Origin: a bacterium | GTDB lineage: Archaea; Thermoplasmatota; E2; JACPAO01; JAHFTW01 | Direction of reading: 5' to 3' | DNA: 64,000 nucleotides | NCBI GenBank assembly: GCA_040390065.1 | Contig: JAZJZE010000002.1 | Span: 38,813 to 102,812 of the forward strand | Shown: one piece after another, positions 727-30,819 of the stretch | How the letters are laid out: every line of letters begins with the position of its first letter | Position numbering within the stretch: the first letter of the stretch is position 1 | Notes under the pieces: generated by a model | Seen by the model: the letters and a program-made list of their open reading frames with translations, nothing else | Database searches by the model: none | What the model was told of the DNA's origin: nothing | Program-made: the position numbers and the translations under genes

Positions 727-2079
727 CTATTGCGGTCGCACGGGCGGCTTGGGGCGCATGGCCAAGGCCACGACTGCGACCAGGGCCGCGATGGCGAGGG
801 CTCCGACGAGGACGCCGACTCCCCACAGCATGTTGGTGGCGGCCGTGTTTGGCGCCGGCGCGGGTTGGTTGCCCCCGGCCGCGCTCGTATCCCTTACGTG
901 GCCGGCGCCGCCAGCCGATGCAGGCGTGCCGTAGATATTGTCGAAGTCGCACGCGTCGCCGATGCCGTCCTTGTCGGAGTCCGCCTGGTCCGGATTGGAC
1001 ACGGATGGGCAGTTGTCCGTGTAGGTGCTGGAGATGCCGTCGTCGGCGATGGCCTGGTTGGGCACGCCGTCGCCGTCGATGTCGTCGTCGCACAGGTCGC
1101 CGTGGGTGTCCTCGTCGACGTTCGTCTGGGCGTTGTTGGCCTTGTCGGGGCAGTTGTCCGAGGCGTCCGGCACGCCGTCGAAGTCGCGGTCCGGCTGTTG
1201 CTGCGGCGGTGGCGTCGGGGGCGGCGTCTCGCCAGCGGGCGGAGCGGCCGTGTCGTCGTCGCACGCGTCGCCCACGTTGTCACGGTCGGCATCGTCCTGG
1301 TCGTGGTTCGGCATGGCGGGGCAGTTGTCGGCGACGTCGATGACGCCGTCCTGGTCGGTGTCCTGGCCGTCGGCGCCGTCGAAGGGCGTGCAGGAGATGT
1401 TGATGTCGTCGAGGAGCGGGCCCTTGTTGTCGCTGCTGGACGGTGGCTGCGGCGCCGCCTGGAATCCGAGATAGTACGTGCCTTGGTCCGTGACCGTGTA
1501 CACCGGCGTCTTGAACGTGGTCCAGACGGTGTTGGAGCTCACGGCCTGGCTGAAGGGCGAGGGCCCCCAGCTGTTGGTGGGCAACGGCCGCGTCAAGGTC
1601 GTCGGGGCCGGGATTAGATAGGCAAGGACAGTGTCCGCCGTTGCCGAGCGCTGCGGACCCGCAAGCGAGAAGGTGAGCGTGTAGTTGCCCGGCGACAGGA
1701 ACATCGTGTGGTAGAAGAAGCCGGCCCGGAACGTCTGGCCGTCGAGCTCGACGAAGGAGCCCATGGTCTTGGTGGCAAACCCTGCGCCCGGGGCCGTGAA
1801 GACCGGGTCGTTGGGGCTGGTGAAGAAGTCGACGGTGCCGTCGAAGACCTTCCAGTTGCGCCACGTCGTGGCCTTGTTCACTTCGCTGGTCTGCGACGTG
1901 CCGCTCTGGATGCGGTCGCCATCGAAATTGTCGTGGAACGTGGCGAAGCCTTCGCAGCCGCGCGCCTGCGCGACGGCGCCGTGCGGCACGACCAGCATGC
2001 CGATGGCCAGCACCGCCACGACGAGGCACGAACGGGAGAGAGACAGTCCACCCACGCCCTTCACATTTCGGCCAGGCAT
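727..2079 (-). CDS. Surface protein: DUF642-like jelly-roll domain, thrombospondin type-3 Ca-binding repeats, C-terminal TM anchor
   Basis: Signal peptide; NWKVFDGTVDF...VELDG...YTLTFSLAG...DNKGPLLDDINI; four DNCP...N..Q.D.D.D..GD.CD repeats; hydrophobic C-terminus then MRPK. Start may instead be a GTG a few codons downstream. Confidence 0.8.
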   Translation of the reverse strand: MPGRNVKGVGGLSLSRSCLVVAVLAIGMLVVPHGAVAQARGCEGFATFHDNFDGDRIQSGTSQTSEVNKATTWRNWKVFDGTVDFFTSPNDPVFTAPGAGFATKTMGSFVELDGQTFRAGFFYHTMFLSPGNYTLTFSLAGPQRSATADTVLAYLIPAPTTLTRPLPTNSWGPSPFSQAVSSNTVWTTFKTPVYTVTDQGTYYLGFQAAPQPPSSSDNKGPLLDDINISCTPFDGADGQDTDQDGVIDVADNCPAMPNHDQDDADRDNVGDACDDDTAAPPAGETPPPTPPPQQQPDRDFDGVPDASDNCPDKANNAQTNVDEDTHGDLCDDDIDGDGVPNQAIADDGISSTYTDNCPSVSNPDQADSDKDGIGDACDFDNIYGTPASAGGAGHVRDTSAAGGNQPAPAPNTAATNMLWGVGVLVGALAIAALVAVVALAMRPKPPVRPQ

Positions 2080-2120
2080 ATGAGGCTTGTCTGCGGACCC
2101 CTGGAGGGCCGCGGTGCTCG

Positions 2121-4562
2121 CTACTCGGGGCGCATGCGGCGCCGCAGCAGCAGCATCAGGAGGCCAACCGTCAGGACGGCTCCGACGACCGCCATCGTTG
2201 CGGCCGTCGTCCAGGACATGCCGGCGACACCTTGCGTGGCCGATGCGCCCACCGGGGAAGCATCGCGCGCCGAGCCACCGGAGGACAAGTAGGAGCACTC
2301 GTCACCGACGCCGTCGTTGTTGGAGTCGAGTTGATCCGGGTTGGCGTACCATGGGCAGTTGTCGAGGAAGGCCCCTGTCGGGCCCGAGTTGCGGACCCCG
2401 TCGCCATCGATGTCGATGTCGCAGACGTCGCCCTTGCGGTCGGCGTCCATGTCAGCCTGATCGTGGTTGGGCGTGCTCTGGCAGTCGTCGGCCACGTCGG
2501 GGACACCGTCATGGTCCGCATCCGGCAGGGGCACGACCACGGGCGTCTCGGTGACTGGGGCCCATTCTGTGACCGGGGCCTCGACCGTGCATGCATCGCC
2601 CATGCCATCGCCGTTCGTGTCGGCCTGGTCGAAGTTGGCAACGGACGGGCAGTTGTCGGACAAGTCAGGGATGCCGTCGAGGTCGCTGTCGAGCGACACG
2701 CCGAAGGGCCAGCGGAGGGACGGGTCGTTGTGCTTCGTGCCCGTGAAGCCGTCGCACGAAGAGTCCTGGCGGATGGGCACGATGGCCGTCGCCGTCGACT
2801 GCAGGCCGGAATTGTAGTAGCTGCTGAGGCCGTTGAAGTCGGTGACGGTCACGGTGACCGTGTAGATGCCTTCCTTGGAGAAGACGTGCGGCACGAAGGC
2901 GTACTGGTTGTACCAGTCATAGGGATGCGCAAACCAGCGGCCCTGCACGACGTTGAGGGCACCACTGCCCGGGTCGCCGAAGTTCCACTTGGCCCACTTG
3001 AAGTCCGCTTCGCCCACGATGGAGTCGCGAGCGTCGAACCAGATGGGGTAGTTGGGACACGTGAAGGCGTACGTCGGCTGCAGGACGGCTTGCGGCTTGC
3101 ACTTGCCGAACCACGTGATCTTGTCCGAGATGGGGCCGTCCGGGGGCGCAGTCACGGGGATGCCGTCGACGAGTCCGCCGAAGAGGTATGCGCTGCATCC
3201 CGTCGAGATGGCGGTTGTGCCGACGAAGCCGCCGCGGCTGTAGTCGTCGGCCTTGGTCGGGCTGCCGGCTCCCGTCGGCATTCCGGAGGCGAAGACCGGC
3301 GCAACGGTCGGCGTCGTGGGATCGTAGCGGTAGACCAGGTTCTTGAACGGCCCGCCGTTGAAGATGAAGATGTAGCGGCCGTCGTAGACGGCGGAAAGCG
3401 AACCGCACAGTGGCGTGAAGTTCTGCTGGTAGATCGTGGTCACTCCCGTGGACGGGGTGAACTTCATGATGGAGCACTCCGGAACGGGGCAGGGGCCGAC
3501 CGTGGGGCAGAGCGGGCTGTAGACGCAGGCGCCGTTCGAGACCTCGGTCGGCGTGCTGCAGGCGACGTCGTCGAGCCAGGTGCCGCCGAAGAGGTAGATG
3601 TCGGAGCCCACCGTGACGGCCTCCATGTCGTAGCGCTTGCCTTCCGGTGTGATGGAGCCGGCGGTGTTGGGCGGCAGCGGGTTCGGGTTCAACGACACGG
3701 TGCAGGATGCCGGGTCGAAGCGGTAGATCTCGTTGGACGTGTGCAGGCTGAACGGGACCAGGTTGCCGTCGCCTTCCAGGTAGCGGCCGCCGAAGACGTA
3801 GGCGGCACCTTCGGCCCAGGCCCCGGCCATGTAGTCGAACTGCCGCGGCAGGACGCAGTTCATCGTGGTGACCAACTGCGATGGCGGGTAGAAACTGTAG
3901 ATTTCGTTGTTGAGGGCGCCGCCATTCGTGCCAGCGAACGTGTACGCCATGTCGAGGTCGGGGTCGTACGCGAGGGCCTGGCGACCGAGGGGCTTCGGCA
4001 GGCTGTTGGCCGGGTTGATCTCGCCGCCCGGGGCGTTGGGGGTGTACGGGATGCCCGGCGAGGGACCGAACGTTGGGCCTTGGGGCATGCCGCGGCTGAA
4101 CTTGGTGATGCTGGAGAGTTCCGTGCCGCCCAGGTCCTTGACACCGCCCAACACGTAGGCGTCCGTGCCGTCCCAGAATGACGTCGCCTCCATGACTTGG
4201 TCGGGGAGCACGACGGGGATGGGCGTCGGCGTGTCAGGCGTCGGCCCAGGGCCGGGCGGGCCGCAGAGGTCCAGGTTGGGAGCGGTGACGGGGTCGGGTG
4301 AGATGATGGTGGGCTCGACCGGGCCCGGCATGCCGATCATTTGGTCGCAGTATTCCTGGTGGACGACGAGTTGCACGCCGTACGTGGGCGACGTGTTCCA
4401 GAAGCCGCTCCATGGGTTGGACGGGGGGAAGCCTTGCTGGGTGGGGACGCACCCTGGGTTGGCGTACGTGCACGGGTCGATGACGGCCTGGCCCGGGATG
4501 GGGACGAGAGCGACAAGCAGGACTGCGGCGGCGAGTTTCAACGTCAGGGCTGGAACGGACAT
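2121..4562 (-). CDS. Kelch-repeat + PKD + thrombospondin type-3 repeat surface protein (paralogue A)
   Basis: Kelch YVLGG/YVFGG/YLFGG blades; PKD WNFGD...HVFSKEGIYTVTVTVTD; DNCP/DDC TSP3 repeats; TM helix + RRRMR tail. Confidence 0.85.
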   Translation of the reverse strand: MSVPALTLKLAAAVLLVALVPIPGQAVIDPCTYANPGCVPTQQGFPPSNPWSGFWNTSPTYGVQLVVHQEYCDQMIGMPGPVEPTIISPDPVTAPNLDLCGPPGPGPTPDTPTPIPVVLPDQVMEATSFWDGTDAYVLGGVKDLGGTELSSITKFSRGMPQGPTFGPSPGIPYTPNAPGGEINPANSLPKPLGRQALAYDPDLDMAYTFAGTNGGALNNEIYSFYPPSQLVTTMNCVLPRQFDYMAGAWAEGAAYVFGGRYLEGDGNLVPFSLHTSNEIYRFDPASCTVSLNPNPLPPNTAGSITPEGKRYDMEAVTVGSDIYLFGGTWLDDVACSTPTEVSNGACVYSPLCPTVGPCPVPECSIMKFTPSTGVTTIYQQNFTPLCGSLSAVYDGRYIFIFNGGPFKNLVYRYDPTTPTVAPVFASGMPTGAGSPTKADDYSRGGFVGTTAISTGCSAYLFGGLVDGIPVTAPPDGPISDKITWFGKCKPQAVLQPTYAFTCPNYPIWFDARDSIVGEADFKWAKWNFGDPGSGALNVVQGRWFAHPYDWYNQYAFVPHVFSKEGIYTVTVTVTDFNGLSSYYNSGLQSTATAIVPIRQDSSCDGFTGTKHNDPSLRWPFGVSLDSDLDGIPDLSDNCPSVANFDQADTNGDGMGDACTVEAPVTEWAPVTETPVVVPLPDADHDGVPDVADDCQSTPNHDQADMDADRKGDVCDIDIDGDGVRNSGPTGAFLDNCPWYANPDQLDSNNDGVGDECSYLSSGGSARDASPVGASATQGVAGMSWTTAATMAVVGAVLTVGLLMLLLRRRMRPE

Positions 4563-20921: not shown

Positions 20922-21953
20922 GTGCGTCGCGCCGCCGGCTTGGCTCTCCTTCTGATCCTTCTGCCCGCGTGCTTGGGACCTGCCACCACCACCTCGACCA
21001 GCACGTCACCCGTTCTGTCGAACCCGATCGTTCGCTTCGTCGCTCTGGGTGACGCCGGCACGGGCGAAGCCGACCAGTTCACCGTCGCGGCCGCCATCGC
21101 CAAGGTCTGCGCCGAGCGCGGCTGCGACTTCGCCGTCGGCCTCGGCGACAACATCTACGACGCGGGCGCCAGCTCGGACCGCGACCCGCAGTTCGACAGC
21201 AAGTTCGAGGTCCCCTACGCGAACTTGGCGATGCCGTTCTGGATGGTCCTCGGCAACCACGACAACTCGCAAGACCCGGCGGCAAGCGGCGCAACGGGGG
21301 GCCTTGGTCTGTGGTACTCGGCCGGCAACAACGAGGTCGCGTACGGCAAGCGCACGGACACGTCGGGCAAGTGGCACATGCCGGCGCGATACTACACCTT
21401 CACGCAGGGACCCGCCGCCTTCGTCGCCCTCGACACGAACACGCTCTTGTTCGACGATGTTCCGGTGCCGCCTGGCCAGGCCGCAGAGGTGCAGGCGCAG
21501 ACGAAGTGGGTCGACGGCGCCATCGCGGCTCTGCCGGCCAACACCACTTGGCGCATCGCCATCGGCCACCACGGCTACCTCTCGAACGGCCCGCACGGCA
21601 ACGCGGGGGCCTACGACGGGCGCGCCGGCGTGCCGGGCCAATCGGGCGACTACACGAAGCAGTTCTTCGAAGCGCACGTCTGCGACAAGGTGGACCTGTA
21701 CCTCTTCGGCCACGACCACGACTTGCAATGGCTCGACGCAGTGGCGCCTTGCGGAAGGACGCAGTTCATCGGCTCCGGAGCGGGCGGCGCCGGCACGTAC
21801 GAGTTGGTGGGCACGAACGCCGGCCGTTTCCAGGCCAGCGAGCACGGCTTCTGGTACTTCGAAGTCGACGCCAAGAATGTCTACGCGACCGCCTACGATG
21901 CCGACGGCAAGATCCTGTACACGGGCGTCATCTCGAAGCACCTTGCCGCGTGA
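20922..21953 (+). CDS. Lipoprotein metallophosphoesterase (purple/tartrate-resistant acid phosphatase-like)
   Basis: GDAG, GDNIY, GNHD, IGHH, GHDH motifs; LPAC lipobox. Confidence 0.88.
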   Translation: MRRAAGLALLLILLPACLGPATTTSTSTSPVLSNPIVRFVALGDAGTGEADQFTVAAAIAKVCAERGCDFAVGLGDNIYDAGASSDRDPQFDSKFEVPYANLAMPFWMVLGNHDNSQDPAASGATGGLGLWYSAGNNEVAYGKRTDTSGKWHMPARYYTFTQGPAAFVALDTNTLLFDDVPVPPGQAAEVQAQTKWVDGAIAALPANTTWRIAIGHHGYLSNGPHGNAGAYDGRAGVPGQSGDYTKQFFEAHVCDKVDLYLFGHDHDLQWLDAVAPCGRTQFIGSGAGGAGTYELVGTNAGRFQASEHGFWYFEVDAKNVYATAYDADGKILYTGVISKHLAA

Positions 21954-21985
21954 CGCCTCGAGCCATCCCGCCGCCACCCGTTCCG

Positions 21986-21992
21986 CTTAAGT
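21986..21992 (+). promoter_or_regulatory. Putative TATA box for the SRP RNA precursor
   Basis: CTTAAGT is the AT-rich element in the gap, about 60 nt before the mature 5' end, implying a 5' leader. Confidence 0.5.
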
Positions 21993-22048
21993 GGGACACT
22001 CCCGTCGTCGCAATCCCGCCACCGCACTGCGATGGCGGCCCGGCGCAA

Positions 22049-22360
22049 GGCGGGGACTAGGTGAGGGAGTAGGCGCCCCTCTTCGTGCAAGTCTACATGG
22101 CGCGACCGAACCCCTGTCGTGGCGCCCGGGGTCCGCTGCAAGCCCTCGTCTTACGGTGAAACCTCGTCCCCCGAGGTCGGCGGTGGCAGGAAACGTCCCG
22201 GAAGGGACGCCGAATGCCTTCGCTGCGGGGACCGGGTCAGGCCCGGAAGGGAGCAGCCTTACCGCAAACGACCGACGTTTGGGGGGGCGCGGGGTGGAGA
22301 ACAACGAGGGATCCAAACTTGCACGGGTTCCGTGGCCGTCGCGGCAGGATCGTCCCCGCC
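22049..22360 (+). ncRNA. ffs: Archaeal signal recognition particle (7S) RNA, 312 nt
   Basis: Helix 1 GGCGGGGAC/GTCCCCGCC; Alu helices 3 and 4 with loop-loop complement GTAGGC/GTCTAC; helix 6 CGTCCC-GGAA-GGGACG; helix 8 TCAGGCCCGGAAGGGAGCA. Confidence 0.95.
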
Positions 22361-22510
22361 CGCTAAAGGGCCTGCCGGGGAATGTAAACCCCTCACGGAG
22401 TATCGAACATGTTCATGCTGGGCGAATACGCGCCGGTGGACAATGCCGCCCCGCGCCGCAACGCTTAACATAGCACGCAGGCTAAAGTCAATTCCTCCCT
22501 GGCGATTTCC

Positions 22511-22747
22511 ATGGTCCTCCTCCGCTGTGCAAAGTGTGGTTCCGATGCCGGTTTCCTCATCGAGACGTCCGACCGCAAGACGCTCGAAGTGAAGGGCAAG
22601 CTCCCCATGGAGCGCATCCTCAAGACCGTCCTCGTCACCTGCGTCTACTGCAACAACCGCTGGGACCACGTCCCGGTCATCGTGACCGACCCCTCCATCG
22701 ACGAGAAGGTCAGCGCCCCTCGCAAAGACCGCGAACTGCTCAACTGA
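22511..22747 (+). CDS. Small zinc-ribbon protein (CAKC...CVYC)
   Basis: 78 aa, strong GC3 codon bias, two CxxC motifs, TATA-like CTTAACAT at 22464-22471. Confidence 0.75.
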   Translation: MVLLRCAKCGSDAGFLIETSDRKTLEVKGKLPMERILKTVLVTCVYCNNRWDHVPVIVTDPSIDEKVSAPRKDRELLN

Positions 22748-30746: not shown

Positions 30747-30819
30747 GGGGACTTAGGCTAACCTGGTAGACTGGCGGCCTCCAGAGCCGCTGATATGCGT
30801 TCAAATCGCATAGTCCCCA
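30747..30819 (+). tRNA. trnW: tRNA-Trp (CCA), intronless, 3' CCA not encoded
   Basis: Acceptor GGGGACT/AGTCCCC-A; anticodon arm GCGGC-CTCCAGA-GCCGC (CCA at 30781-30783); T arm ATGCG-TTCAAAT-CGCAT. Confidence 0.93.

Follow-up and report, generated by a model that had tools for sequence, protein, structure and literature searches.

Can an SRP RNA whose gene is in normal order be cut out of its transcript and closed into a ring by the machinery that splices tRNAs? Textbooks present SRP RNA, a universal and essential component of cells, as a linear molecule. The accepted exception is the circle of Thermoproteus, which depends on a motif termed bulge-helix-bulge (BHB) and is explained as the repair of a scrambled gene. 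The locus described here, from an uncultured member of the Thermoplasmatota, lies in a stretch of 64,000 nucleotides that was analysed as a whole (the window). The original prediction for this DNA was that an unpermuted SRP RNA is enclosed in a BHB stem, excised like an intron and circularised. We analysed this proposal using covariance models, folding, comparative alignments and public RNA data.

The SRP RNA gene and its flanking sequences

An archaeal SRP RNA (Rfam RF01857) was found by covariance model at 22050-22359 on the forward strand, scoring 141.3 bits against a gathering threshold of 96.5. Model positions 1-317 were colinear with the DNA and the termini fell in helix 1, and not inside the S domain as in a Thermoproteus-type permutation. 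The gene order is normal, in agreement with the original prediction. The leader and the trailer of this RNA form a canonical helix-bulge-helix-bulge-helix (hBHBh') in which SRP helix 1 is the inner helix. Its central helix has 4 bp, each of the two strands bears one bulge of 3 nt, and further helices flank the motif on either side (Table 1). The pairs of the central helix are, in order, G-U, G-C, C-G and G-C (GGCG with CGCT). Both bulges sit 3' of their own strand of the central helix, matching what we take to be the canonical pre-tRNA handedness, as derived from the position-37/38 tRNA intron. Minimum free energy (MFE) folds of 22025-22385 and 22006-22400 each returned the same BHB structure, and every letter and coordinate that had been proposed for the flanks was recovered in the sequence and in these folds.

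A TATA box had also been proposed about 60 nt upstream of the RNA. A TTAAG is indeed present there, and YTTAAG was seen by eye at the same distance in most loci of the same family. Its function as a TATA box is probable, judging from the sequence. Judged by eye, positions 22016-22038 within the leader carry a copy of the trailer strand of the outer stem, and the leaders of loci L015 and L027 do likewise. The 5' strand of the outer stem consequently has two alternative partners, the upstream leader, with which it would form a hairpin, or the trailer, with which it would form the processing stem. This pairing switch between leader and trailer may act as a co-transcriptional folding device.

Other features of the window were noted around the gene. 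The open reading frames that overlap the SRP RNA gene, in high-GC DNA, were taken as spurious. A second CGCTTAA element (22463-22475, forward strand) precedes a 78-aa open reading frame with a Cys-rich N-terminus (22511-22747, forward strand), and this promoter-like word seems to be reused for that next gene. Further downstream, the window carries a tRNA-Trp(CCA) gene without an intron (30747-30819, forward strand).

Table 1. Features of the SRP RNA locus (window coordinates) and BHB motifs of the rRNA genes in the same genome (locus coordinates)
Feature	Position	Strand	Basis or remark
Promoter-like element GCTTAAGTG, with TTAAG at 21987-91	21985..21993	+	about 60 nt upstream of helix 1
Leader hairpin 5' of the processing stem	22007..22033	+	fold of 22006-22400; within the presumed leader
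Outer helix, 5' strand, GGC + GGCCC	22034..22041	+	sequence, both MFE folds
Outer helix, 5 bp	GGCCC 22037-41 with GGGCC 22368-72		
Outer-helix extension, 3 bp	GGC 22034-36 with GCC 22374-76		across bulged T 22373
Central 4-bp helix, 5' strand GGCG	22042..22045	+	sequence, covariation
5' bulge CAA	22046..22048	+	predicted cut 22047/22048
Excised segment, predicted 319-nt circular SRP RNA	22048..22366	+	Rfam match 22050-22359, wrap-around contigs
SRP helix 1, 5' strand GGCGGGGAC, BHB inner helix	22049..22057	+	sequence, Rfam, covariation
SRP helix 1, 3' strand GTCCCCGCC, BHB inner helix, 9 bp	22352..22360	+	sequence, Rfam, covariation
Central 4-bp helix, 3' strand CGCT	22361..22364	+	would join the 7-nt loop closing helix 1 of the circle
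3' bulge AAA	22365..22367	+	predicted cut 22366/22367
Outer helix, 3' strand GGGCC, bulged T, GCC	22368..22376	+	sequence, both MFE folds
16S rRNA BHB	L344, 16S at 1501-2970		inner helix 5 bp, outer helix 10 bp, bulges ATA and TAA
23S rRNA BHB	L345, 23S at 1501-4391		inner helix 21 bp, outer helix 14 bp, bulges CAA and AAA

Conservation and distribution of the motif

RF01857 was present in 36 of the 41 genomes of a sample of relatives, the window's own genome counted. All 46 usable loci of the window's own class (families f1-f9) were aligned with MAFFT; they were picked by taxonomy and not by motif, and one further locus (L018) was left out for its missing 3' end. Both ends of the locus stayed in register across the 46 loci. 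In the central helix 98.9% of the cells were paired and all four pairs had changes on both sides. Similarly, helix 1 had 98.5% of its cells paired, with changes on both sides in 8 of its 9 pairs, and the outer helix 70.9%, with changes on both sides in 5 of 5. None of 500 column shuffles reached any of the observed pairing measures, and when the 3' partners were slid by 1-3 columns only 36-48% of the cells were paired. The variants of the central helix were GGCG with CGCT or CGCC, GACG with CGTC, TGCG with CGCA, GGAG with CTCC or CTCT, and GGCC with GGCT or GGCC. The bulge columns were free of gaps in the 46 rows and the 5' bulge was always 3 nt long. Bases 1 and 2 of the 3' bulge were A in 46 of 46 rows, and base 3 of the 5' bulge was A in at least 90% of them. 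The outer stem extended up to 12-17 bp in some genomes of the same family (L023, L025 and L027).

An anchored scan with strict criteria (4 of 4 central pairs, an inner helix of at least 4 bp and an outer helix of at least 2 bp) scored these 46 loci as 30 strict, 13 relaxed and 3 without a motif. Among the relaxed forms, some had a single mismatch in the central or the inner helix, and others, from AT-rich genomes, a weak outer helix. All loci scored as lacking the motif belonged to f9, making up three of its four loci. By eye they carried a homologous motif in which helix 1 has one bulged base, and they are probable misses of the scan. The BHB at the SRP RNA is kept with compensatory changes in relatives at the level of the class; BHB covariation in related genomes was one of the checks named with the original prediction.

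The analysis was extended to a phylum-wide sample of 151 genomes with a completeness of at least 80%, of which 147 contained an SRP RNA. With 100 further loci of the phylum added, 130 loci were scanned, three of which were unusable. The anchored scan scored 46 as strict, 5 as having an inner mismatch, 4 as having three central pairs, 16 as having a weak outer helix and 56 as lacking the motif. The strict rate was 46 of the 127 usable loci, against 30 of 5080 flank shuffles (0.6%), indicating that the BHB occurs in SRP flanks more often than by chance. An initial scan with a wide register was too permissive (53 strict matches in 2540 shuffles) and was superseded by the anchored one. Flanks of the motif type were found in f1-f9, f11, f12, f14, f16, f17, f19, f20, f24, f26, f28, f31, f32, f35, f36, f40, f41 and f44. 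The anchored scan found no BHB motif in f10, f13, f18, f25, f27, f30, f33, f34, f37, f39, f42, f43, f45 and f46. The flanks of f29 were ambiguous, possibly having a BHB with a 4-nt bulge. Matches were also obtained in f15 (one strict), f22 (one strict and one weak) and f38 (two weak). They were judged by eye to be chance matches, with another register, T-rich 3' flanks and a TATA box at about -25, and these three families were therefore placed by eye among those without the motif.

In most families without the motif, a box rich in A/T preceded the SRP RNA by about 25-30 nt, from which the 5' end of the RNA is probably the transcription start in these families. All the single-contig genomes of the sample (G070, G083, G089, G110, G125, G130, G151 and G166) belonged to motif-less families. 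The mcrA gene was present in f10 (2 of 2 genomes tested) and in f43 (1 of 1), both of which lack the BHB motif. Sixteen genomes of other families, among them the window's own and ten from f14, f19, f24, f37, f38, f41 and f44, yielded no mcrA. We take the methanogens of this phylum to be the Methanomassiliicoccales; if so, cultured groups would be without the BHB. The low-GC families f4 and f5 were considered as candidates for that order and set aside, no mcrA being found in four of their genomes, of 94-98% completeness.

Outside this sample, nine named archaeal loci were gathered through a scan with a conserved helix-8 word, which returned mostly bacteria. They came from Methanobrevibacter (two loci), Methanoperedens, Methanospirillum, Nanoarchaeota (two loci) and MAGs of the Sulfolobales, DHVE2 and Thermoplasmata; the DHVE2 and Thermoplasmata MAGs belong to the window's phylum. 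The f33 flanks are similar to those of the DHVE2 locus, which fits the placement of the window's genome in the Thermoplasmatota. No BHB was seen by eye in these nine SRP loci, and those of the Sulfolobales, Methanoperedens, Methanospirillum, Methanobrevibacter and Nanoarchaeota had a TATA box about 25-30 nt upstream. In three other phyla, with 30 loci each, the anchored scan gave 0, 1 and 0 strict matches (1 of 90). The lone match, in genome G232, was judged to be due to chance for the same features as in f15, f22 and f38 (register, T-rich 3' flank and TATA box at about -25).

Junction contigs in environmental RNA, enzymes and rRNA controls

Window positions 21900-22500 were matched by 24 public runs from 15 studies, each with 0.15-0.22 of the sampled words. 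Four RNA runs were aligned to positions 21950-22450 at 90% likeness, as assembled Logan contigs and not as reads: X2 and X3 from one soil study, X9 from another soil study and X5 from a freshwater-sediment study. Wrap-around contigs, in which the 3' end of the SRP RNA runs directly into its 5' end, were present in 4 of 4 metatranscriptome runs examined, representing three studies. Contigs that aligned from 22047 onwards (three in X2, three in X3 and one in X9) were preceded by the letters of the SRP 3' end through CGCTA, the last 13-14 letters before 22047 being identical to window 22352/3-22365. Conversely, contigs that aligned up to 22369 continued as window 22051-22062, for 12 letters in both X3 and X9 and for 19 in X5, whose letters were closer by eye to the relative G004 than to the window. 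Both views lead to one junction, which reads 3' strand of helix 1, CGCT, three A's and 5' strand of helix 1, with the shared A's and G's absorbed by the aligner on each side. This is exactly the sequence that had been predicted for the joining of 22366 to 22048, found in all four runs in contigs of close relatives. Three bulge bases are retained, as canonically expected (two from the 3' bulge and one from the 5' bulge); all of them are A, and the junction fixes their total and not the position of the cut within each bulge.

The junction contigs were 90-99% alike to the window and the junction-bearing records about 88-97%, some of them only about 88-93%. Their source is thus close relatives and not provably the window's own strain. 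Their unaligned ends were 12-30 letters long. In direct orientation the two ends of the SRP RNA have four bases in common, so the assembler would not be expected to join them without real junction-spanning reads. Logan contigs are, as we understand it, assembled on 31-base words, with words seen only once being dropped. Mean word depth was only about 7 in some of the runs that contained the junction. Contig cover was nil over 21950-22034 and 22375-22450 in the four RNA runs, as would fit rapid loss of leader and trailer, although contig absence is not evidential. Contigs reveal neither how much of the RNA is circular rather than linear nor where its true ends lie. One 273-letter contig in each of X2 and X3 joined 22114 to 22224, skipping 109 bases. 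These two contigs probably come from a more divergent relative whose middle part was left unaligned, rather than from a deletion form. Altogether, the wrap-around contigs support that, in environmental RNA of close relatives, the SRP RNA is cut at the BHB and closed into a ring.

The genes for both the endonuclease and the ligase of a BHB-circle pathway are in the window's genome. EndA is encoded in a single reading frame (G000:C6:32446-33144) with a tRNA_int_endo_N and two tRNA_int_endo stretches (Pfam), a two-unit layout that we take to be that of the homodimeric, strictly BHB-specific type of enzyme. RtcB is encoded at G000:C5:151385-152704 (541 bits). The rRNA genes of the same genome served as internal controls. 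The 16S and 23S genes (contig C1) are linked, and long processing stems enclose each of them and contain a canonical BHB (Table 1), the bulge pair of the 23S stem being the same as that of the SRP RNA. Between the rRNA bulges and the Rfam ends of 16S and 23S there are 47-81 nt, whereas helix 1 itself serves as the inner helix at the SRP RNA.

Proposed maturation, alternatives and comparison with known circles

The following route would account for these observations. Transcription would start at about 22010-22016, downstream of the TTAAG, yielding a precursor in which the SRP RNA, in normal order, is preceded by a leader of some 32-38 nt and followed by a short trailer. The leader hairpin would form first; once the trailer is made, 22034-22045 would pair with 22361-22376 and complete the BHB against helix 1. 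EndA would then cut after the second base of each bulge, and RtcB would ligate both ends of the excised piece. RtcB joins a 2',3'-cyclic phosphate to a 5'-OH end. The predicted product is a covalently closed SRP RNA with helix 1 capped by a 7-nt loop (CGCU + AA + A). We consider it very likely that the SRP RNA is excised and circularised, with EndA and RtcB as the presumed acting enzymes. We also lean, with less assurance, towards the circle as the main functional form of the SRP RNA. The circle is favoured as the mature form because the BHB lies directly against helix 1, with no spacer left for trimming; the near-invariant bases of the junction, and its occurrence in 4 of 4 runs, those of low depth included, also point to the circle as the main form.

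The same motif could instead be a processing stem only, the working SRP RNA being linear and the circles minor by-products or short-lived intermediates that are reopened. We regard this as unlikely. It has a precedent in archaeal rRNA maturation, where the circle derived from a BHB is an intermediate according to the accessible portions of two reports (PMC7714728; bioRxiv 10.64898/2026.03.23.713588), and the circular share of the RNA is not measurable from contigs. However, the spacer of 47-81 nt that the rRNA bulges of this genome leave has no counterpart at the SRP RNA, where the motif abuts helix 1 and adds 7 bases. The junction contigs in four of four runs, even at a mean word depth of about 7, likewise speak against minor by-products, an argument from low depth that depends on our assumption that words seen once are dropped from contigs.

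That the stem remains uncleaved, as an extended helix 1 of a longer linear SRP RNA or as a hairpin for termination or stability, would agree with the Rfam model, in which the 5' and 3' ends of archaeal SRP RNA pair in helix 1. Yet the contigs depart from the genome inside both bulges and continue into the opposite end of the RNA. In addition, the bulges of strictly 3 nt and the central helix of 4 bp are conserved, with covariation, and a plain extension of the helix needs neither, making an uncleaved stem highly improbable. Chance complementarity combined with an artefact of assembly or reverse transcription might be suspected from the short unaligned contig ends and the mixed-community source of the RNA, but the same junction was recovered in three studies with different library types, and the unaligned letters were identical to the window over 12-14 bases on both sides. 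A flank-shuffle rate of 0.6%, and the failure of all 500 column shuffles to match the observed pairing, further oppose such an origin, which we find hardly credible. Excision at the BHB followed by ring closure is the reading that we retain in what follows.

Compared with known systems, the locus most directly recalls Thermoproteus tenax and T. uzoniensis, in which the SRP gene is permuted and its leader and trailer form a BHB, as described in the main text of Plagens et al. 2015 (PMC4731332). According to the same text, the motif is cut in vitro by the tRNA-splicing endonuclease, the RNA is circular by RNA-Seq and RtcB is proposed as the ligase. As in Thermoproteus, the leader and trailer of the SRP precursor form the BHB here. 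In that genus the gene is rearranged, the junction lies near a functional loop of the S domain and ligation restores the RNA (PMC4731332). In contrast, the gene order here is normal and the junction caps helix 1 in the Alu domain. The endonuclease of Thermoproteus, which belongs to a different phylum, is a heterotetramer of relaxed specificity, whereas here two endonuclease units in one reading frame accompany a strictly canonical motif.

The SRP precursor also resembles those of the archaeal pre-16S and pre-23S circles in its long leader-trailer stem and canonical BHB, and in the cut by EndA and the ligation into a circle that are proposed for it here. In the rRNA case the circles still contain spacer, which is removed afterwards, and they are reopened (PMC7714728; bioRxiv 10.64898/2026.03.23.713588). 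Unlike them, the SRP motif adds only 7 bases, and reopening is not obviously needed. Circular RNAs associated with SRP RNA have been reported in Sulfolobus, Halobacterium, Haloferax and Thermococcus barophilus (PMC3326292; PMC12558985; bioRxiv 10.64898/2026.03.23.713588), and these too come from non-permuted genes. In the available sections of those three reports they are described as 7S RNA segments or minor junctions, with no mention of a BHB. Within the portion consulted of another study, a BHB-filtered screen of circular RNAs in H. volcanii lists seven circles, none of them from the SRP RNA (PMC7714728). The same portion describes a canonical-BHB intron within the 5' UTR of Haloferax volcanii HVO_1309 mRNA, with a circular product of 46 nt (PMC7714728). 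The SRP locus is like HVO_1309 in having a canonical BHB outside tRNA and rRNA and a circular excised product, with EndA action proposed here; the 46-nt intron of HVO_1309 has no known function, whereas here a whole essential RNA is excised. In the main texts of the open-access papers searched, BHB-dependent circular SRP RNA was found only for the permuted genes of Thermoproteus, consistent with the original remark that no description in the present lineage was known to its author.

The same machinery would here act on an unscrambled gene, with the BHB kept across many families of one phylum. Given the unscrambled gene, the covariation and the RNA support, circularisation looks like a selected maturation route and not a rescue. 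Natural substrates of EndA and RtcB would thereby extend beyond tRNA, rRNA and one mRNA leader. The route may have been overlooked on account of which lineages are cultured: in the sample, neither the genomes in a single contig nor the families with mcrA (methanogens) have the motif. The closed helix 1 raises the question of its role in SRP stability or in the function of the Alu domain. Judging by the soil and sediment runs, the host organisms need not be thermophiles.

Excision of this kind is independent of where transcription starts and stops, so the SRP gene could ride in other transcripts. We put forward as a tentative possibility, and one that we would not yet favour, that in many uncultured Thermoplasmatota the only mature SRP RNA is a covalently closed ring that the tRNA-splicing machinery makes from a gene in normal order, the gene riding in other transcripts. 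If so, the SRP RNA could be an intron-like insert just downstream of tRNA-Ala in some families. In others it could lie in the 5' leader of the mRNA that encodes the small subunit of DNA polymerase D, which excision and exon ligation would then shorten. In f16 and f29, the SRP RNA is preceded, on its own strand, by a tRNA-Ala(CGC) gene whose end is about 20 nt upstream (L188:433-505, reverse strand; L236:14-88 and L241:11-86, forward strand). The 5' end of the SRP RNA is therefore not a transcription start at those three loci, a point in favour of processing, and the arrangement suggests tRNA-Ala-SRP co-transcripts in these two families. In f5 and f9, both low-GC families, the 3' bulge of the SRP RNA is followed within 0-3 nt by the ATG of a gene (for example L003:1788-3245, forward strand). 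Pfam finds DNA_pol_E_B and Metallophos domains in its product, which resembles the DNA polymerase D small subunit. Were this gene and the SRP RNA co-transcribed, the SRP RNA would leave the 5' leader of that mRNA like an intron.
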